A stretch of 64,000 nt of DNA from Mustelus asterias (taxonomy: Eukaryota). Position numbers and translations under genes: made by a program. Positions 1,255 through 64,000 of this stretch are shown here, piece after piece. The stretch lies in assembly GCF_964213995.1 (NCBI RefSeq), contig NC_135803.1, positions 105,524,001-105,588,000 on the forward strand, in the 5' to 3' direction. The notes below the pieces were generated by a model that saw nothing but the letters and a program-made list of their open reading frames with translations, searched no databases and was not told the DNA's origin. The stretch's first letter is position 1. Every line of letters starts with the position of its first letter.

Positions 1255-2088
1255 GTAGCTCTTGACTGGTGTTTATTTAATATACACATAATATTTAGGT
1301 GGTCACTGGTGAAGCAGCATTTAACAAACAAAGCACATCCTATCTTGGCCTTCAAAGTGTTGTTTTGCAAAAACGGAACTTTAAGTGCGTCTGTGATCTG
1401 TTTATGTTACTTAACATTCACCAAGTAAAATAAGTTTCTTTATTACCCAGATGAATGAAACCAAGAAATAGGAAAATTAGGAATGGGGTGACAGAATTAT
1501 TGCCCATCACTGCTCACCCACTTCATTGGGATCAGTAGTGACAAAAGCACATAGAGGCAGTCTTTATCAATACATCAATATTAGAAATTATATTACAATG
1601 GCCCTGTCTTTTTCAGTGCAGATAGTTATATCCTTAAAGAAGACAATTTCAACTGTGTTTTTACATGGCATATGCAGTTAATAGTGAACATTGTGTTCTG
1701 TCATACACTTCCCTACAGATCTTGCCTTCAGCCCACCCCTCTTGCAGCTTTTTGTAGTTTTAGACATTTAACATTTATAACATGGGCTAACTGCCAGCTG
1801 AGTGAAAAGACACAATGGTGATGTTAATAAAATGCTGCAGTTGCCAGCCTGTCTATAGCTAGGATTACAATCCCTACTAGGTAATAAATCATTGGATAAT
1901 TCATTACAATAAAGAACTCAATCATGCAGGATGCCTTGTGCCGTAAATCTAGTATACATCTGTGAGCAGAATTTGTGTTCAGCTGCATCTAAAAATCGGC
2001 AAGAACCAAAACCTCCTTGCTGCCTATGCAGTACCGCATTCATCTGGCAGTGAAACCAATCGGTTCAGCTGCAGACAATAGTATTTAT

Positions 2089-2125
2089 CCACCCCCCCCC
2101 CCCCCCCCCCGCCCCCCCACCCCAC
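2089..2125. repeat. Poly-C tract
   Basis: Near-pure C run of about 35 nt. Confidence 0.9.
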
Positions 2126-2200
2126 TTTCTCCAATTCTCCCTGAAAACAGGCCAGTTTCCACCTACATGGCCCTTCTCCTTGCATGAGCTATTCTGTAAA

Positions 2201-2646
2201 TCATAAATCCCTACAGTACAGATTTGGCCCATTGAACCTGCACCAACAACAGTCCCACCCAGACCCTATCCGCGTAACCCAAAGTATTTATCCTCCTAGT
2301 AGATAAGATTTTTGAACAGTAAAGGAATTAAGGTTATGGTGAGCGGGTGGGTAAGTGGAGCTGAGTCCACAAAAAGGCTAGCCATGATCTTACTGAATGG
2401 CAGAGCAGGCTGGAAGGGCCCAGTTCATATGGTCTTATGTTCTAATCCCCCTGACATTCGGGAACAATTTAGCATGGCCAATCGACCTAACCCACACATC
2501 TTTTGACTATGGGAGGAAATCGGAGCACCCAGAGGAAACCAAGCAGACACCAGGGAGAATGTGCTAGCTCCACACAGTCACCCAAGGCCAGAATTGAATC
2601 CGGGTCCTTGGTGTTGTGAGGCAGCAGTGCTAATCACTGTGCCACC
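2201..2646 (-). mobile_element. HE1-type SINE with a nested CR1 3'-end fragment (about 2298-2442, + strand)
   Basis: tRNA-like head (GGTGGCACAGTGATTAGCACTGCTGCCTCAC, box B GGATTCAATTC) and HE1 body/tail. Confidence 0.8.
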
Positions 2647-3342
2647 CACTGTCTGAGGATTCAACAAAAGGGCATCACAACTGAGGCTGTTGGGCCTCTC
2701 ATAAATATATTTATTCACCTCCAAGTCTCTCACCTTCCTGACTTGGAAATTTTTAAAAAATATACTTTTCCAATTCAATCAAATCAAATCCAATTCAGAG
2801 TCTCAACAAAGAACAAAGAACAATACAGCACAGGAACAGGCCCTTCGGCCCTCCAAGCCCGCGCCGCTCCCCGGTCCAGGATTGAATCCTGAATCCAGGA
2901 TCCCCGCCCAATTTTCCAGCCTATCTACATACCAATATCCTATCCACCGAGCTGTCCCTCACAGCTACGATGCTTTGTTCATTACAACCTATTAACTTAC
3001 CCCCACCCCCCCATTCCAGACCATGTGATCTCCAGGGAGAGGCGAAAACCCAGAGTGAAAAACCCCAGGGCCAATATGGGGAAAAAAAATCTGGGAAATT
3101 CCTCTCCGACCCCCTGAGGCGATCGAAACGAGTCCAGGAGATCACAATGGCCCCGATCGGAAAATGCTTCCCAACCCTAGTCATTTCCACTTCCACGAAC
3201 ACCATATGAATTCCCTGCCCCCGAGACAGGTTCCCAACTATCCGCAGTCTCACTCTGTACTGGCACCAGCAAGATGATCATAGAATGAAGCCTTGAAACG
3301 AGAAACCAGGAACAATTAGCCCGCGCCGCTCCCTGGTCCAAA

Positions 3343-6225
3343 CTAGACCACTCTTTTGTATCCCTCCATTCCCACTCCGTTCATATAGCTGTCTAGATAA
3401 GTCTTAAACGTTCCCAGTGTGTCCGCCTCCACCACCTTGCCCGGCAACACATTCCAGGCCCCCACGACCCTCTGTGTGAAATATGTCCTTCTGATATCTG
3501 TGTTAAACCTCCCCCCCTTCACCTTGAACCTATGACCCCTCGTGAACGTCACCACCGACCCAGGGAAAAGCTTCCCACCGTTCACCCTATCTATGCCTTT
3601 CATAATTTTATACACCTCAAGTAAGTCTCCCCTCATCCTCCGTCTTTCCAAGGAGAACAACCCCAGTTTCCCCAATCTCTCCTCATAACCAAGCCCCTCC
3701 ATACCAGGCAACATCCTGGTAAACCTCCTCTGTACTCTCTCCAAAGCCTCCACGTCCTTCTGGTAGTGTGGCGACCAGAACTGGACGCAGTATTCCAAAT
3801 GCGGCCGAACCAACGTTCTATACATCTGCAACATCAGACCCCAACTTTTATACTCTATGCCCCGTCCTATAAAGGCAAGCATGCCATATGCCTTCTTCAC
3901 CACCTTCTCCACCTGTGACGTCACCTTCAAAGATCTGTGGACTTGCACACCCAGGTCCCTCTGCGTCTCTACACCCTTTATGGTTCTTCCATTTATCGTG
4001 TAGCTCCTCCCTACATTATTCCCACCAAAATGCATCACTTCGCATTCATCAGGATTGAACTCCATCTGCCATTTCCTTGCCCAAATTTCCAGCCTATCTA
4101 TATCCTTCTGTAGCCTCTGACAATGTTCCTCACTATCTGCAAGTCCTGCCAGTTTTGTGTCGTCCGCAAACTTACTGATCACCCCAGTTACTCCTTCTTC
4201 CAGATCATTTATATAAATCACAAACAGCAGAGGTCCCAATACAGAGCCCTGCGGAACACCACTAGTCACAGGCCTCCAGCCGGAAAAAGACCCTTCCACT
4301 ACCACCCTCTGTCTTCTATGACCAAGCCAGTTCTCCACCCATCTAGCCACCTCCCCCTTTATCCCATGGGATCCAACCTTTTTCACTAGCCTACCATGAG
4401 GGACTTTGTCAAATGCTTTACTAAAGTCCATATAGACAACATCCACGGCCCTTCCTTCGTCAACCATTTTAGTCACTTCTTCAAAAAACACCACCAGGTT
4501 TGTGAGGCATGACCTCCCTCTCACAAAACCATGTTGACTATCGTTAATGAGTTTATTCCTTTCTAAATGCGCATACATCCTATCTTTAAGAATCTTCTCC
4601 AACAACTTCCCCACCACGGACGTCAAGCTCACCGGCCTATAATTACCCGGGTTATCCTTCCTACCCTTCTTAAATAACGGGACCACATTGGCTATCCTCC
4701 AATCCTCTGGGACCTCACCTGTGTCCAGTGACGAGACAAAGATTTGCGTCAGAGGCCCAACGATTTCACCTCTCGTCTCCCTGAGCAGCCTTGGATAGAT
4801 TCCATCAGGCCCTGGGGATTTGTCAGTCTTTATATTCTCTAACAAACCTAACACTTCCTCCTTTGTAATGGAGATTTTCTCCAACGGTTCAACACTCCCC
4901 TCCGAGACACTCCCAGTCAACACATCCCTCTCCCTTGTGAATACCGACGCAAAGTATTCATTTAGGATCTCCCCTACCTCTTTGGGCTCCAAGCATAGGT
5001 CCCCACTTTTGTCCCTGAGAGGTCCGATTTTTTCCCTAACAACCCTTTTGTTCCTAACGTATGAATAAAATGCCTTGGGATTCTCCTTAATCCTGTCTGC
5101 CAAGAACATTTCGTGACCCCTTTTTGCTCTTCTAATTCCCCGTTTGAGTATTTTCCTACTTTCATTATACTCCTCCAGAGCTCCCTCCGTTTTTAGCTGC
5201 TTGGACCTAACATACGCCTCTCTTTTCCTTTTGACCAGTCCCTCAATTTCCCTGGTTATCCACGGTTCTCTAATCCTACCCTTCCTATCCTTCTTTTTTA
5301 CAGGCACATGCTTGTCCTGTAGCCCTAACAACCGTTCCTTAAAAGACTGCCACATACCAGATGTGGATTTACCCTCAAACAGCCTCTCCCAATCAAGAGC
5401 TGCCAATTTCTGCCTGATCCCAATAAAGTTAGCCTTCCCCCAATCCAACACCTTACCCTTGGGACACCACTCATCCTTTTCCATCACTATCCTAAAGCTA
5501 ACAGAATTGTGGTCACTATTTGCCACATGTTCCCCAACCAAAACTTTGAAGACCTGACCGGGCTCATTCCCCAGCACCAGGTCCAGTATAGCCCCCTCTC
5601 TAGTTGGGCTGTCCACATATTGTTCCAACGAACCCTCCTGTACACATTTTACAAATGTCTCACCATCCAGAGTCCCTGCCCTCAGCGATTTCCAGTCTAT
5701 ACCAGGGAAATTGAAGTCTCCCACTACAACAACCCTATATTTCCTGCACCTATCCAGTATCTCCTGACATATCCATTCTTCCACTTCCCTTGGGCTGTTG
5801 GGGGGCCTGTAGTACACCCCCAACATAGTGACTGCGCCTTTCCTGTTTCTAAGCTCCACCCAGAGTGACTCGCTACACGACTCCTCCGAATTGTCCTCCC
5901 TCTGCACCGCTGTAATATGCTCTCCAACCAATACCGCTACTCCCCCACCTCTTTTGGCCCCTCCTCTGTCTCGCCTAAAACACTTGTACCCTGGAATATT
6001 CAGCTGCCAGTCCTGTCCCTCTTTCAACCAAGTCTCTGTCACTGCAACCACATCCAAATTCCTCGTGCGCATTAAGGCCCCAAGTTCGTCTGTTTTACCT
6101 GCTACGCTCCTTGCATTGAAGTATAAGCACTCCAGACCCCCAGGCTCAGTGAGGTCGTCCTCCCCCAGAGTGCTCTTCTTCTTTGCCAGCCTTGTCCCAG
6201 CCCCAAGCTCGTCCCCAGCCACCAC
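3343..6225 (-). CDS. CR1 ORF2: AP endonuclease + reverse transcriptase
   Basis: EN motifs YFNARS, VTETW, GVYYRPP, VVGDFN, SDH; RT motifs YRPVSLTS, QHGF, DFSKAFDKV, GVPQGSVLGP, KFADD; no stops. Confidence 0.95.
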   Translation of the reverse strand: MVAGDELGAGTRLAKKKSTLGEDDLTEPGGLECLYFNARSVAGKTDELGALMRTRNLDVVAVTETWLKEGQDWQLNIPGYKCFRRDRGGAKRGGGVAVLVGEHITAVQREDNSEESCSESLWVELRNRKGAVTMLGVYYRPPNSPREVEEWICQEILDRCRKYRVVVVGDFNFPGIDWKSLRAGTLDGETFVKCVQEGSLEQYVDSPTREGAILDLVLGNEPGQVFKVLVGEHVANSDHNSVSFRIVMEKDEWCPKGKVLDWGKANFIGIRQKLAALDWERLFEGKSTSGMWQSFKERLLGLQDKHVPVKKKDRKGRIREPWITREIEGLVKRKREAYVRSKQLKTEGALEEYNESRKILKRGIRRAKRGHEMFLADRIKENPKAFYSYVRNKRVVREKIGPLRDKSGDLCLEPKEVGEILNEYFASVFTRERDVLTGSVSEGSVEPLEKISITKEEVLGLLENIKTDKSPGPDGIYPRLLRETRGEIVGPLTQIFVSSLDTGEVPEDWRIANVVPLFKKGRKDNPGNYRPVSLTSVVGKLLEKILKDRMYAHLERNKLINDSQHGFVRGRSCLTNLVVFFEEVTKMVDEGRAVDVVYMDFSKAFDKVPHGRLVKKVGSHGIKGEVARWVENWLGHRRQRVVVEGSFSGWRPVTSGVPQGSVLGPLLFVIYINDLEEGVTGVISKFADDTKLAGLADSEEHCQRLQKDIDRLEIWARKWQMEFNPDECEVMHFGGNNVGRSYTINGRTIKGVETQRDLGVQVHRSLKVTSQVEKVVKKAYGMLAFIGRGIEYKSWGLMLQMYRTLVRPHLEYCVQFWSPHYQKDVEALERVQRRFTRMLPGMEGLGYEERLGKLGLFSLERRRMRGDLLEVYKIMKGIDRVNGGKLFPGSVVTFTRGHRFKVKGGRFNTDIRRTYFTQRVVGAWNVLPGKVVEADTLGTFKTYLDSYMNGVGMEGYKRVV

Positions 6226-6266
6226 ACTTATAGACCTAATAGTTTGATCCCCACCCCCCTGCCATA

Positions 6267-6914
6267 CTAGTTTAAACCCCCCCGAACTGCATTAGCAAAG
6301 CTCCCAGCCAGGATATTTGTGCCCTTCCAACTTAGTTGTGACCCCTCCCTCTTGTACAGGTGCCATCCTCTCCTGAAAACCTCCCATTGGTCTATGAAAA
6401 TAAAGCCCTCCCTCCTGGACCAGTCCTTTAGCCAGGCATTCATTTGAACCAACTCCCTATTCTTATCCTCACTGGCACGAGGCATTGGGAGCAGCCCAGA
6501 GATGGCCACCCTAGTGACCCTACTTTTTAACCTATTTCCCAACTCCCTGAATTGCTCTCTTAGGACCCCCCTACTCTTCCTATCTACGTCATTTCCACCA
6601 ATGTGTATAATGACATCCGTTTCTTTATCTTCCCCTTTTAAAATGCCTCCTATCCGCTCGGAGACATCCGTGACCCCAGCACCAGGTAGGCAGACTACCA
6701 TCCTGGAGTCCCGTTCGCCCCCACAGAATCGCCTGTCTGTCCCTCTAACTGACGCATCCCCCACCACTATCGCTCTCCTAACCCCTCTCTTCCCTTTCCG
6801 GGCCACAGAGCCTGACTGTGTGCCAGTGACCTGGTCACTGTGTCTTACCCCTGGAGAGGCACACTCCTCCACACTATCTAAAACAATGTACCTGTTTTGG
6901 AGTGGGACAACCAC
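6267..6914 (-). CDS. CR1 ORF1 C-terminal part, SGNH-esterase-like domain
   Basis: PLQNRY, IVVGD.SVRG, VCLPGA, HIGGND, SGLLP and ending GLN*, typical of CR1 ORF1. Confidence 0.85.
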   Translation of the reverse strand: MVVPLQNRYIVLDSVEECASPGVRHSDQVTGTQSGSVARKGKRGVRRAIVVGDASVRGTDRRFCGGERDSRMVVCLPGAGVTDVSERIGGILKGEDKETDVIIHIGGNDVDRKSRGVLREQFRELGNRLKSRVTRVAISGLLPMPRASEDKNRELVQMNAWLKDWSRREGFIFIDQWEVFRRGWHLYKREGSQLSWKGTNILAGSFANAVRGGLN

Positions 6915-6940
6915 AGGAGAACGTGCAGACTATATTAACA

Positions 6941-8110: not shown

Positions 8111-8410
8111 TCATAGAATCCCTACGGTGCAGAAGGAGGCCATTCGGCCCATCTAGTCTGCACCGACCACCCAGGCCCTATTTCCGTAACCCCATATATT
8201 TACCCTGCTAATCCCCTGACACTAGGGTCAATTTAGCATGGCCAATCAATCTAACCCATACGTCTTTGGACTGTGGGGAGAAACCGGAAGAAACACACGC
8301 AGACATGGGGAGAACGTGCAAACTCCACAGACAGTGACCTGAGGCTGGAATTGAACCCAGGTCCCTGTTGCTGTGAGGCAGCAGTGCTAACCACTGTGCC
8401 ACCATGCCGC
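8111..8410 (-). mobile_element. HE1-type SINE
   Basis: tRNA-derived head, conserved body, CR1-like tail GGGATTCTATGA. Confidence 0.88.
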
Positions 8411-20836: not shown

Positions 20837-22109
20837 CTGCAAAATAAATCCCATCAGAATTAGGTTTCATGGTAGCACAATGGAAGGTTACATAAGATTT
20901 CTCAAGGGTCTCACAATAAGTCCAAGCAAATAACTTACTTCCGTGGGCTAGACAGTCAATTAGAATTATATGTAGTAAGGATTTCCTACAATAATAGTTT
21001 AACTGTAGTCAGAAACAACTTGGATAGGTTGTAAGGCAAGTGGAATGTTAATGTTGGAGAACTGCATGAATATCAATGCAGAGCACATCTAGATTACAGA
21101 TTTTTGTCCAACCTATAGTCATAGGGTAGTTACCTATCATCTTACAGCCCAACCCTAGTTTAGCTATTCTTTCCTTCCTTAGTCTTGATATAAAGCAACT
21201 CCTCATTGTTAGGGTGCTGGATCAGAACCCCAAATTATATTAGGACGCCAGACTAGATCCCAACAATTTTTCTATTGTTGATGTTTCAGTAGGGGAGCAG
21301 TTCAGGAACAGTGACCACAATTCAGTAAGCTTTAAGATACTGATGGATAAAGATAAATGTGGTCCTCAAGTTAAGGTGCTAAATTGGGGAAGGCTAATTA
21401 CAACAATATTAGGCAGGAACTGAAGAATGTAGATTGGGGCAGATGTTTGAAGGCAAATCAACATCTGGCATGTGGGAAGCTTTCAAGTGTAAGTTGATAA
21501 GGAATCAGGACCAGCACATTCCTGTAAGGATGAAGGATAAGTATGGCAAGTTTTGGGAACCTTGGGTGACGGGAGATATTGTGAGCCTAGTCAAAGAGAA
21601 AAAGGAAGCATTTGTCAAAGCTAGGAAGCTGGGAACACACGAAGCAAGTGTGGAATACAAGGAAAGTAGAAAGAAACTTAAGCAAGGAGTAAGAAGGGTT
21701 AAAAGGGGTCATGAAAAAGCATTGGCCAGCAGGATTAAGGAAAATCCCAAGGCTTTTTATACATATATAAAGAGCAAGAGGGTAGCCAGGATGAAGGTTG
21801 GCCCACTCAAGGACAAGGGAGGGAATCTATGCGTGGAGCCAGAGGAAATGGGCGAGGTATTAAATGAGTACTTTGCGTCAGTATTCACCAAACAGGAGTT
21901 GGTGGATGATGAGTCTGGGAAAGGATGTGTAGATAGTTTGAGCCATGTTGAGATCAAAAAGGAGGTATTAGGGTTCTTGAGAAACATTAAGGTAAACAAG
22001 TTCCCAGGGTCTGATGGGATATACCCCAGAATACTTGAGAGAGGCAAGGGAGGAAATTGCTGGGGCCTTGAGAGAAATCTTTGTATCCTCACTGGCTACA
22101 GGGGAGGTC

Positions 22110-22331
22110 ACAGTAAGAAGTTTAACAACACCAGGTTAAAGTCCAACAGGTTTATTTGGTAGCAAAAGCCACACAAGCTTTCGGAGCTCCAAGCCCCTTC
22201 TTCAGGTTCTTCACTCACCTGAAGAAGGGGCTTGGAGCTCCGAAAGCTTGTGTGGCTTTTGCTACTAAATAAACCTGTTGGACTTTAACCTGGTGTTGTG
22301 TTTACCCCAGTCCAACGCCGGCATCTCCACA
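22110..22331. mobile_element. Palindromic Penelope-type non-autonomous element with hammerhead ribozyme motifs
   Basis: Near-perfect inverted arms of about 80 bp; 13-bp TSD tacaggggaggtc (22097-22109, 22332-22344). Confidence 0.85.
22216..22252 (+). ncRNA. Minimal type I hammerhead ribozyme motif
   Basis: CAC-CUGAAGA-A-GGGGC(uugga)GCUCC-GAAAGCUU^GUG: conserved core, stem II, 3-bp stem I, palindromic AAGCUU minimal stem III. Confidence 0.7.
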
Positions 22332-24195
22332 TACAGGGGAGGTCCCAGAGGATTGGAGAATAGTCAATGTTGTTCCTTTGTTTAAGAAGGGTAGCAAGAA
22401 TAATCCAGGTAATTACAGGCCAGTGGGCCTTACATCAGTGGTAGGAAAATTATTGGAGAGGATTCTTCGAGACAGGATTTATTCCCACTTGGAAATAAGT
22501 GGGCGTATTAGTGAGAGGTAACATGGTTTTGTGAAAGGGAGGTTGTGTCTCACGAATTTGATCGGGTTTTTCGAGGAAGTGACGAAGATGATTGATGAGG
22601 GTAGGGCAGTGGATGTTGTCTACATGGACTTCAGTAAGGCCTTTGACAAGGTCCCTCATGGCAGACTGGTGCAAAAGGTGAAGTCGCATGGGATCAGAGG
22701 TGAGCTAGCAAGGTGGATACAAAACTGGCTGGTCAAAGAAGACAGAAGGGTGTGTTTCTGAATAGAGGGCTGTGACAAGTGGTGTTCCTCAGGGTTCGGT
22801 GCTGGGACCTTTGCTGTTTGTAATATATATATATATATATATATAAATGATTTGGAGGATTGATTAGTAAGTTTGCGGACGACACAAAGGTTTGCGGATA
22901 GCGATGAGGACCATCAGAGGATCAGTTGGAGACTTGGGCGGAGAGATGGCAGATGGAGTTTAATCCAGACAAATGTAAGATAATGCATTTTGGAAGGTCT
23001 AATACAGATAGAAAATATACAGTAAATGGCAGAACCCTTAAGAGTATTGATAGGCAAAGGGATCTATCTGGGTGTACAGGTACACAGGTCACTGAAAGTG
23101 GCAATGCAGGTGGAGAAGGTAGTCAAGAAGGCATACGGCATGCTTGCCTTCATCGGCCGGGGCATTGAGTTTAAAAATTGGCAAGTCATATTGCAGCTTT
23201 ATAGAACCTTAGTTAGGCTGCACTTGGAATATAGTGTTCAATTCGGGTCGCCACACTACCAGAAGGATGTGGAGGTTTTGGAGAGGGTATAGAAAAGATT
23301 TACCAGGATGTTGCCTGATTTGGAGGGCATTAGCTATGAGGAGAGGTTGGAGAAACTTGGTTTGTCCTCACTGGAGTGATGGAGGTTGAGGGGAGACCTG
23401 ATAGAAATCTACATGATTATGAGAGGCATGGACAGAGTGGGCAGTCAGAAGTTTTTTCCCAGGGTGGAAGAGTCAATTACTAGGGGGCATAGGTTTAAGG
23501 TGTGAGGGGCAAGGTTTAAAGGAGTTGTACGAGGCAGATTTTTTACACAGAGAGTAGTGGGTGCCTGGAACTCGTTGCCGAGGAAGGTAGTGGAAGCGGA
23601 TACGGTAGTGACTTTTAAGGGGCATCTTGACAAGTTCATGAATAGGATGGGAATAGAGGGATACAGTCCCTGGAAGAGTAGGGGTTTTTAGTTAAGTCGG
23701 GCAGCATGGTCGGTGCAGGCTTAGAGGGCCGAAGGGCCTGTTCCTGTGCTGTAATTTTCTTTGTTTTTATTTTGGCATAAATGTGAGAAATGGGTGCTTG
23801 GCTCCAGGAGTAATTCCACTGATATATTAGGGATACTTTATAGTAAAACAAACTTTATTAACACAGTTTAACTATAACTCTAACAAATGAAGCAGCTCAA
23901 CAATCAACAGTTGAACAATATTTAAAAATGAATGGAAACAACTTTAATTTTTAACTTGTCAATGTTTCAGTTCCAAATATGCAACATTCCTTTTAAAGGC
24001 TTACAGTGCCACTTTAAATGCAGTTAGCAACTATAAATATGCTTTCTATAATGAGTGTAGACAGTCTTGAAGCTTTTAGAAAGAAAATGAGTTTCAGCGC
24101 AGCTTCTAGAACACCAGTCTTCAAAACAAAACCCCAGCCAGACCTGAAAAGCTGTTTCATTCTGTTACAGACTAGCTCCTCCCATTAACCATATC

Positions 24196-29582: not shown

Positions 29583-30530
29583 AAAACATAGAAAATAGAA
29601 GCAGGAGTAGGCCATTTGGCCCTTTGAGCCTACTCTGCCATTCATTATGATCATCAAATTCAATATCCTTATCCCACCTTCCCCCTATATCCCTTGATCC
29701 CGTAGGCCCCTAGAGCTATATCTAATTTCTTCCTGAAATCACACAATATTTTGGCCTCAACTACTTTCTGTAGTAGTGAATTCCACAGATTCACCACCCA
29801 CTGGGTGAAGAAATTTTTCCTCACCTCAGTTCTAAAAGGTTTACCCCTTATCTTCAAACTATGCCCCCTAATTCTGGGCTCCCCCAACATTGAGAAAATT
29901 CTTTCAGGATCTAACCTGTCTAATCCTGTTAGAATTTTATAAGCTTCTATGAAATACCCTCTCACTCTTCTAAAATCCAAAAAATATAATCCTAACCGAC
30001 TTAGTTTCTCCTCATGTGCAGACCTGCCATCACCAGGAATCAGCCTGGTAAACCTTTGCTGCACTCCCTCTATAGCAAGGACATCTTTCCTCAGATAAGG
30101 ATACCAAAACTGCACACAATACTCCAGGTTTGGCCTCACCCAGCACCTGTACAATTGCAGTAAAACATCCCCATTCCTGTACTCAAATCCTCTCACTATG
30201 AAGGCTAACATACCATTTGTCTTCTTTACTGCCTACTATACCTGCATGCTTACTTTCAGCGGCTGATGCACGAAGGCTCCAAGATCTCGCTGAGTATCCA
30301 CCTCTCTCAATTTATACCCATTCAAATAATAATCTGCCTTCCTATATTGCTACCGAAGTGGATAACCTCACATTTACCCACTTTATACTGCATCTGCCAT
30401 GCCTATGCCCACTCACTCAGCCTGTCCAAATCACGTTGAAGCATCTCTGCATCCTGCTCACAGCTCACTCTCCCACACAACTTTGTACATTTGTAAATTT
30501 GGAGATAATACATTTAGTTTCCTCTTCCAA
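29583..30530 (-). mobile_element. CR1 LINE 3' fragment
   Basis: ORF 29669-30211 is the ORF2 C-terminus (LEYCVQFW.PYLRKD); CR1 tail. Confidence 0.9.
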
Positions 30531-32769: not shown

Positions 32770-33742
32770 TTAATGATTTAATACATTAATGATTTGGACA
32801 AAGGAATTTAATGCAATATTTTCAAATTTGCAGATGACACAAAACTGGGTGGCAGTGTGTGCTATGAGAAGGATGCTAAGAGGCTGCACAGTGACTTGGA
32901 CAGGCTGGCTGAGTGGGCAAATGCAATATAATGGGAAAAGTGTGAGGTTATCCACTTTGGGGGCAAAAACAGGAAGATTATTATCTGAATGGTGGCAGTT
33001 TAGGAAAAGGGGAATTGCAACGTGTCCTGGTTGTCATGGTGGAACAGTCGCTGAAAGTTGGTATGCAGTTACAGCAGGCGGTGAGGAAAGCTAATGGCAT
33101 TCTGACCTTCATAACAAGAGGATTTGAGTCTAGGAATAAGGGTGTCTTGCTGCAGTTATACAGGGCCTTGGTGAGGCCACACCTTGAGTATTGTGTGCAG
33201 CTTTGGTCTCCTAGTCTGAGGAAGGACATTCTTGCTATTGAGGAAGTCCAGCAAAGGTTCACCAGACTGATTTCCAGAATGGCAGGGCTGACATATGAAG
33301 AAAGACTGGATCGACTGGGCTTGTACTCACTGGAATTTAGAAGAATGAGAGGGGATCTCATAGAAACGTATAAAATCCTGATGGGATTGGACAGGCTATA
33401 TGCAGGAAGAATGTTCCTGATGTTTGGGAAATCTAAAATTAGGGGTCACAGTCTAAGAATAAGGAGTAAGCCATTCAGGACTGAGATGAGGAAGAATTTC
33501 TTCACTCGGAGAGTTATGAACCTTTGGAGTTCTCTACCACAGAAAGCTGAAGGGGCCAGTTCATTAGATATGTTCAAGAGGCAGCTGGATGTGGCCCTTG
33601 CGGCTAAAGGGATCAAAGGGTATGGAGAGAAAGTGGGAGTGGGATACTGAAAGTGTATGATCAGCCATAATCATATTGAATGGTGGTGCAGGCTCGAAGG
33701 GTCGAATGGCCTACTCCTGCTCCTATTTTCTATGTTTCTATG
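32770..33742 (+). mobile_element. CR1 LINE 3' fragment
   Basis: KFADDTKLG remnant and ORF 33015-33650 (ORF2 C-terminus); TTTCTATG tail. Confidence 0.92.
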
Positions 33743-63318: not shown

Positions 63319-63554
63319 CCCAAACTCAGAATGCAGTGATTAAATCTGCTGATGATAATAGCAAGAATTGTTGTGGATAGGATAACAAACTGGTTGTTGA
63401 GTTTGTGTCAGGGAAAAGAGAGTTGGGTTCTAGAATGGGCCTCCTCAACCTGTAAATGGACAGAATAGGTACAGATGAAATGTATTACAGGTTTAAACTA
63501 CTACATACTATAATAAAGGACAGGCGATACCGCTTAGTATGGCTATGTTTGTAC

Positions 63555-64000
63555 ACTTTGTAATATATATAAATGATTTGGAGGAAAATGTAACTGGTTT
63601 GATTAGTAAGTTTGCGGACGACACAAAGATTGTTGGATTTGCAGATAGCGATGAGGACCATCAGAGGATACAGCAGGATATAGATCGGTTGGAGGCTTGG
63701 GCAGAGAGCTGGCAGATGGAGTTTAATCCGAACAAATGTGAGGTAATGCACTTTGGAAGGTCTAATACAGAAAGGAAATATACAGTAAATGGCAGAATCC
63801 TTAAGAGTATTGATAGGCAGAAGGATCTGGGTGTACAGGTTACTGAAAGTGGCAATGCAGGAGGAGAAGGTAGTCAAGGTGGCATAGGGCATGTTTGCTT
63901 TCATTGGCCGGAGCATTGAGTTTAAAAATTGGAAGTCATGTTGCAGCTTTATAGAACCTTAGTTAGGCCGCATTTGGAATATAGTGTTCAATTCTGGTCG
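63555..64000 (+). mobile_element. CR1 LINE RT fragment running off the window end
   Basis: FVIYINDLEE...ISKFADDTK...WQMEFNP. Confidence 0.9.

Follow-up and report, generated by a model that had tools for sequence, protein, structure and literature searches.

A conserved module of predicted RNA structure in the 3' UTR of a Mustelus asterias CR1 element, apparently acquired from another CR1 lineage

Structured RNAs of transposon 3' regions and the host element

CR1 elements are the dominant retrotransposons in most vertebrates (PMC13343379, available part), and the 3' UTRs of CR1/L2 LINEs carry a structured RNA, a terminal stem-loop that is essential for ORF2 binding (available parts of PMC4316615 and PMC4176376). 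No UTR structure beyond this terminal hairpin is mentioned in the accessible portions of PMC4316615, PMC13343379, PMC5753468 and PMC4176376. Other transposon 3' regions contain ENEs or double ENEs (dENEs), which are defined by opposing runs of U between stems closed by G-C pairs, once or twice in a hairpin (accessible parts of PMC7583470, PMC13541005 and PMC12501189). Such elements clamp the poly(A) tail. The hosts listed for ENEs in the available part of PMC7583470 comprise viruses, MALAT1-type RNAs, transposons of plants, fungi and slime mould, and stickleback retroviruses; LINEs are absent from that list. The xrRNAs, which are pseudoknotted folds that stall 5'-to-3' exonucleases, are known only from viruses in the available part of PMC8374639.

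The module described here lies in the 3' UTR of a LINE on the minus strand of the window, i.e. the whole stretch of 64,000 nucleotides that was analysed. Like the CR1/L2 stem-loop it is a predicted structured RNA of a LINE 3' UTR; however, it is internal rather than terminal and appears to be dispensable, and the terminal stem-loop region of this element (2805-2855) is separate from it. The literature searched, mostly titles and the beginnings of abstracts, yielded no description of the module, and a term search of the supplementary CR1 alignment of PMC4316615, which is trimmed at the ORF2/UTR boundary, did not recover its motif. The LL2R preprint proved to be unrelated to the module. The sequence itself probably lies within existing repeat-library entries.

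The host element, which we take to be a CR1 following the earlier note on this DNA, displays the features of CR1-group LINEs, namely an ORF2 with an APE endonuclease and a reverse transcriptase, an esterase-like ORF1, and a stem-loop with a microsatellite tail. ORF2 (3343-6291, minus strand) is open over 982 codons from stop to stop and matches Exo_endo_phos (E 4e-14) and RVT_1 (E 4e-35). The 3' part of ORF1 (6267-6929, minus) is GDSL-esterase-like (Lipase_GDSL_2, E 1e-8), and as read off the sequence the copy appears to be 5'-truncated near 6930. The recipient 3' terminus with its microsatellite tail (2805-2855, minus) has no poly(A). As had been claimed, the 3' UTR is unusually long: it measures 538 nt (stop at 3343-3345, tail end near 2805) against 76 nt in a sister family that lacks the insert. 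Truncated CR1 copies of other families are also found in the window at 21413-23768, 29669-30232, 32946-33650, 57222 and 63485-63958, with short 3' UTRs at the termini at 23724 and 57222, as are several repeats that resemble SINEs and end in tails of the CR1 type (at 2450-2650, with further termini near 8152, 20077, 24489 and 63269).

Origin of the insert

Read along the minus strand, the additional sequence follows a 23-mer (3318-3340) whose state is identical to the single copy of the empty sister elements. It comprises a 5' flank (3158-3317) to which no source could be matched, the structured module (3021-3157), the rest of the donor 3' UTR (2940-3020), which ends where the 3' terminus of an old CR1 family begins, a 30-bp piece of CR1 ORF2 at the junction (2901-2930; 87% identical to 4074-4103 and 93% to the ORF2 of the sister family), and a short filler (2879-2900) in which direct and inverted repeats occur locally, after which comes the downstream, duplicated copy of the 23-mer (2856-2878). 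The two 23-mers are present where first reported, and are identical at 22/23 positions with a spacing of 462. The extra segment said to lie between them is present, but the repeat brackets 439 bp, and the structured, conserved part is confined to about 3021-3157. The suggestion that this repeat is a sign of the module's own mobility is not supported, as the repeat is recipient sequence that was duplicated once and the empty sisters possess just one 23-mer.

Exact matches to a 22-mer from the module number 9,710 in the genome of 3.68 Gb (control 0). The first 30 of these, all from a single contig, are members of one young family; they carry the insert and share 94-99% identity with the copy in the window. 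For a 34-mer placed across the empty site the number of matches is 5,433. In all 30 of the empty-site copies inspected a single 23-mer is directly followed by the common terminus, and their ORF2 ends are 86-96% identical to that of the window. In an unrooted tree of 42 ORF2 ends (24 empty and 18 full, shorter copies having been left out) all full copies group in a single clade (local support 0.89), which is nested in the empty ones and adjoins an equally young empty clade of 8; the polarity of the gain also leans on more distant CR1s, which have short UTRs. From this single clade of full copies among empty ones and the short UTRs elsewhere it follows, at the level of sequence phylogeny, that the insert is a single gain, that the repeat is a duplication and that the module is dispensable for the spread of the element, an equally young sister clade devoid of it having been active too. 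Module-bearing copies outnumber all copies with the empty-site 34-mer (9,710 against 5,433), and the equally young sisters make up 8 of the 24 empty sequences in the tree. As a side observation, L068/L069 and L066/L070 share identical insertions and identical flanks on separate small contigs, i.e. these are duplicated or haplotype contigs.

Relatives of the module outside this young family point to its source. A looser pattern search of the genome returned 12 matches, 3 of which are decayed copies of the module outside the young family, and all 13 matches to a second pattern are likewise decayed outside copies (two being repeats of earlier matches); blastn recovered 11 of these 13 at 63-78% identity and a profile all 13. 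A motif upstream of the decayed modules occurs at 29 loci, in 15 of which the module stands behind it, and in L123 and L129 this motif is the end of an ORF2. These copies represent an old, dead CR1 family, in which about 25 nt separate the family's own ORF2 stop from the module and about 110 nt the module from the family's terminus; the young family has the module about 185 nt from the ORF2 stop. The insert of the window tracks the old family up to the start of the old terminus and then ends, and by this alignment most of the 439-bp insert is 3' UTR sequence captured from a different CR1 lineage. The 160-nt 5' flank of the insert has no match, the old family included, so the direct donor would be some relative of that family; a genome pattern search for the insert running into the old terminus gave one old copy and did not find the direct donor.

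The ORF2 piece and the filler at the 3' junction suggest template switching rather than a clean insertion. The capture could have taken place by such switching during reverse transcription, whereby synthesis would have passed from the recipient tail to the ORF2 filler, then to the donor UTR and back to the recipient, of which 23 nt would have been recopied. Template switching of this kind would leave the recipient's own terminus in place.

Predicted fold and conservation of the module

On the element strand, 3021-3157 is predicted to form a three-way junction, one arm of which contains two internal loops rich in U. The 5' strand of P1 (3134-3145) pairs with 3025-3036, with a single U-U mismatch in the window at a place where the old family has U-A. 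P2 (3106-3126) is a hairpin of 3121-3126 with 3106-3111, whose loop opens with a conserved GCC (3120-3118) and whose five inner pairs have predicted probabilities of 0.84-0.98. The remaining arm is predicted to run in the order P3, lower U loop, P4, upper U loop, P5 and apical loop. Its ascending side consists of the P3 5' strand (3101-3105, partner 3038-3042) with the AAUUU (3100-3096) of the lower loop, together 3096-3105, and of the P4 5' strand (3090-3095, partner 3049-3054) with the eight U's of the upper loop, together 3082-3095. P5 and the apical loop with its conserved AUUGGC occupy 3063-3081, and 3043-3062 holds the 3' sides of the upper (U4-5 plus CAC) and lower (U4 plus CG) loops, which flank the P4 3' strand. 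When 3015-3155 is folded, the element (minus) strand has z = -5.2 and the plus strand z = -3.7, and none of 200 shuffles folds as well on either strand.

The four nested helices of the earlier note are exact reverse complements at 3025-3033/3137-3145, 3036-3042/3101-3107, 3049-3054/3090-3095 and 3063-3067/3077-3081, although the outermost pair of the second is weak (probability 0.14). That set overlooked P2 (3121-3126/3106-3111), with which the fold becomes a three-way junction. The internal loops are U-rich as described, but only on the element strand. The proposed pairing of the apical loop with GGGUCGG is not supported, because this stretch is predicted to form the 3' strand of P2 and is hence occupied. 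The alternative contact of the apical loop with GCC fares better: a GCC/GGC loop-loop contact is plausible in view of both triplets being kept in all three lineages compared, but the two never covary. The leader 3146-3155 is complementary to the apical loop (3066-3075) over 9-10 nt in the window and the old family, where 9/10 majority positions fit. This 10-bp pairing (3155-3146 with the apical loop) was rejected as a part of the structure, having an ensemble probability of 0 against an extension of P1 and not being evident in the distant homolog L039.

A profile of old copies, made from 20 of the 29 loci (15 of the 20 having been picked after the module match was visible), scores the window at E 2e-33. 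The window agrees with the majority of the old columns at 97/118 core positions (82%), as against 28/70 downstream (40%), where the alignment is poorer (52%), and 45/126 upstream (36%); single old copies agree with the column majority at 66% of the core on average. By this comparison only the module of about 135 nt is the conserved part of the insert. The majority bases of the old copies (n=32) form standard pairs at 12/12 positions of P1, 6/6 of P2, 5/5 of P3, 4/6 of P4 and 2/5 of P5, with the upper arm aligning poorly among them, and their lone apparent swap in P2 resembles CpG decay. A pair count on a model-fitted alignment (79.5% paired; 0/500 shuffles) was set aside, since the structure had guided that alignment and the copies in it are dead.

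A homolog beyond CR1 of this genome is furnished by L039, a metagenome contig whose host looks amniote and which we take as the sole foreign lineage in the comparison. It is the one true homolog among 26 metagenome pattern matches, the other 25 being chance. A model built from young copies alone places it first among 37 pattern-matched foreign loci (24.6 bits, E 8e-5; runner-up 12.9). Homologs outside the subfamily are thus this locus and the copies of the ancient CR1 family, and the GATCGCC/GGTCGG/TTGGC-type motifs that the earlier note gave for amphibian/reptile LINE 3' regions are present in L039. Its minimum-energy fold is the same junction, with z = -1.0, which is not significant by itself. 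Across P2-P4 all 17 of 17 pairs hold between L039 and the module, 6 with changes on both sides and 1 with a one-sided change; the covariation comes from L039 alone, with CpG decay as a possible source of its P2 change and with a register of P4 that is our own reading. The upper U-rich loop is absent from L039, which has a single-loop form. On the minus strand of L039 (770-1242) two decayed units, repeated in tandem every 170 bp or so, come after the module homolog; the DNA around them is rich in GC and probably that of an amniote host. A CR1 remnant upstream of its module could not be established (E 0.097). Four sequencing runs gave no cover of L039, and DNA searches of the genome from which the window comes, with the module and with L039, gave no match, common words being skipped by that search. 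A pattern of the amniote type had 0 matches, and a looser version matched nothing but 14 young-family copies with point mutations. Scans of viral sequences yielded a single chance match and 0, a prokaryote scan 10 matches, all by chance, and no ORF2 relatives were found in viral contigs.

Several observations bear on whether the module is under selection in its new host. Contigs from sequencing runs of organisms A, B and C cover the module wholly or partly and those of organism D only its upstream flank, none carrying strand or RNA-end information; among the differences listed for them, 0 fall in 66 paired bases as against 23 in 302 flank bases (P 0.02). In 44 young copies shared variants affect 0/99 free bases of the core and 13/318 other bases (P 0.045), positions forced by the search being excluded. 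Seven copies have in common a 99-bp deletion in the 5' flank (3297-3199), defining a subfamily in which the module is spared; L199 has lost nearly the whole 5' flank and kept the module, and in a variant of organism B 74 bp are gone from the 3' flank (2928-3001) with the module kept. No deletion inside the module was seen among the copies examined. These data bear on a view in which the module is a passenger that functioned once in the donor and is now simply carried by a successful master copy. The single gain, the equally young empty sister clade and the only modest significance of the within-family and cross-organism tallies are compatible with a passenger, but the deletions sparing the module on both sides, with none among the examined copies entering it, and the lack of any helix change among the differences listed in other organisms argue against it, and we regard it as distinctly unlikely. 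The module would rather be a conserved, apparently selected and portable RNA structure taken by one CR1 lineage from another. Of the earlier proposal of a portable functional RNA captured by CR1s, the capture between lineages, the apparent selection and the predicted structure stand; the ribozyme that it offered as one function is not supported.

Possible functions of the module

We tentatively favor, at a probability of roughly 40%, the reading of the module as an ENE-type RNA stability element, the ENE kind being the most likely one on structural analogy. The dENEs of plant and fungal transposons (e.g. of rice TWIFB1) and the Arabidopsis Evade ENE resemble the module of the young family in having two U-rich loops split by a short duplex (available parts of PMC7583470, PMC13541005 and PMC12501189), G-C closing pairs, additional non-U bases on the 3' side and an intronless transposon 3' UTR as their setting. 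As far as these sources go, the module differs in its vertebrate non-LTR host, in copies without poly(A), in an arm set within a three-way junction and in the conserved sequences of the apical and P2 loops. Neither the adenosine triad nor the 3'-end pocket of the dENE was identified in the module, in which a conserved AA and a 3' YG are seen. Single ENEs (KSHV PAN RNA, MALAT1/MEN-beta) share with it a U-rich internal loop between short stems (PMC6633196, available part), L039 being of this single-loop form; unlike them the module is not followed by an encoded A-rich tract, and the U runs of its conserved loop are shorter. In the reviews' description of ENEs there is no place for the junction or for the invariant GAUCGCC and AUUGGC.

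The anatomy of a U-rich internal loop between G-C-closed stems was recognized by a descriptor written after the module had been seen (U3+ runs beside a CC/GG-closed stem, with a 5-bp lower stem). In 128 kb of window it matches only the two loops of the module, and it has no match in 6 random windows; two matches occur in 0/2,000 shuffles of the module and one match in L039. The form with two loops and a short duplex is present in the young family, weak in the old one and absent in L039. As an ENE-type element the module would clamp the poly(A) tail in its U-rich loops by U-A-U triples and thereby slow the decay of the intronless element RNA, while the GCC/GGC loop-loop contact would form within the junction. 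Polyadenylation would occur downstream of the microsatellite tail, so that the poly(A) would not be copied into DNA. The module would raise copy number, being helpful and not essential. Against this reading count the copies ending in a microsatellite with no poly(A), the lower loop with only 3 U's on its 5' side (which may be no more than a stack of U-U and A-G mismatches), the absence of the upper U-rich loop from L039, the poor alignment of the upper arm among old copies, and the empty sister clade, which is just as young and was active in the same period. A scan of young copies for an encoded A-rich third strand found no A-tract longer than 4 after the module within the element.

The main rival, which we hold to be unlikely, is a protein-binding platform serving nuclear export, the escape of long read-through 3' UTRs from NMD, translation or particle assembly, with the U loops as hinges or pyrimidine-binding sites. 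Retroviral transport and stability elements are analogous platforms. Such a role requires no poly(A) and could explain why the unpaired AA, GAUCGCC and AUUGGC are kept at the level of sequence, and a module only about 25 nt past the stop in the old family would suit it; the distance of about 185 nt in the young family would not, and protein binding by itself leaves unexplained the U-tracts on both sides of G-C-closed loops.

The 5' ends of truncated copies are of interest for two further alternatives. Among about 110 copies with the module pattern, those lacking the upstream 22-mer and those previously retrieved were inspected. Eight have their 5' ends in 3112-3241, and 6/8 of these fall within 3146-3170 (scan P 0.02), just 5' of P1, and 4/8 within 3163-3170 (scan P 0.04). 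The copies clustered at the equivalents of 3146-3170 are L019, L071, L203, L206, L212 and L231, and the deletion breakpoint of L199 is also there. Ends piling up just upstream of the module hint at a likeness to xrRNAs (PMC8374639, available part), i.e. to a pseudoknotted fold stalling 5'-to-3' exonucleases, with the protected 3' fragment sometimes being retrotransposed. Flaviviral xrRNAs of classes 1 and 2 combine a three-way junction with a pseudoknot in a 3' UTR (same source, same part), to which the predicted junction and the possible pseudoknot of the module would correspond; the module departs from them in its long P1 and its long arm with U loops, and no pseudoknot between a 5' end and the junction was found in it. 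Its helices are far longer than those of xrRNAs, full-length progeny cannot arise from a 3' fragment, and a bias of reverse transcription or end joining could yield the same cluster, which consists of eight ends only (a ninth, at 3240, came from another pattern and was excluded) and is given no independent support by the old copies because later insertions interrupt them. The nuclease-resistant element of the earlier note is left with a weak hint from these ends, and we consider it improbable.

The same cluster could mark the cut of a self-cleaving ribozyme of a new class, for which the size, the junction and the invariant unpaired nucleotides would be suitable. We consider this very unlikely. 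The ends are spread over 25 nt rather than lying at a single site, and a cut in the 3' UTR would separate ORF2 from the tail that it needs, a need described for L2 elements (PMC4176376, available part). Rfam 15 gave no match at the gathering threshold, ribozymes included, for window 2000-5000 and L039 (best scores 18-23 bits, none over the module), and by short motifs no hammerhead, HDV, twister, pistol or hairpin core was found, consistent with the first reading of the sequence as regards the first three. Copy numbers hold up over the module's 3' half, the 22-mer counts being 9,534 downstream and 9,710 inside.

A broader version of the ENE-type reading, which we offer as speculation with long odds against it, is that the module represents a vertebrate CR1 RNA family as old as the split of cartilaginous fish and amniotes, passed between LINE lineages and guarding both ends of the RNA by means of a poly(A) clamp and a kissing-loop junction that stalls 5' exonucleases. 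If true, non-LTR retrotransposons would have their first ENE-type element and cells a first xrRNA-like fold.

An exchangeable RNA element in addition to the terminal hairpin would mean that 3' UTR modules are traded among LINEs, and it would make testable how the RNAs of stringent LINEs, whose copies lack poly(A), terminate and persist. The two sister clades, one of which carries the insert, form a natural pair for comparison.

A minor variation concerns the upper 5' U run (equivalents of 3082-3089), which ranges from about 7 to 11 nt and includes a C in 8/43 copies. The MALAT1 ENE, too, reportedly has a C within its U run.
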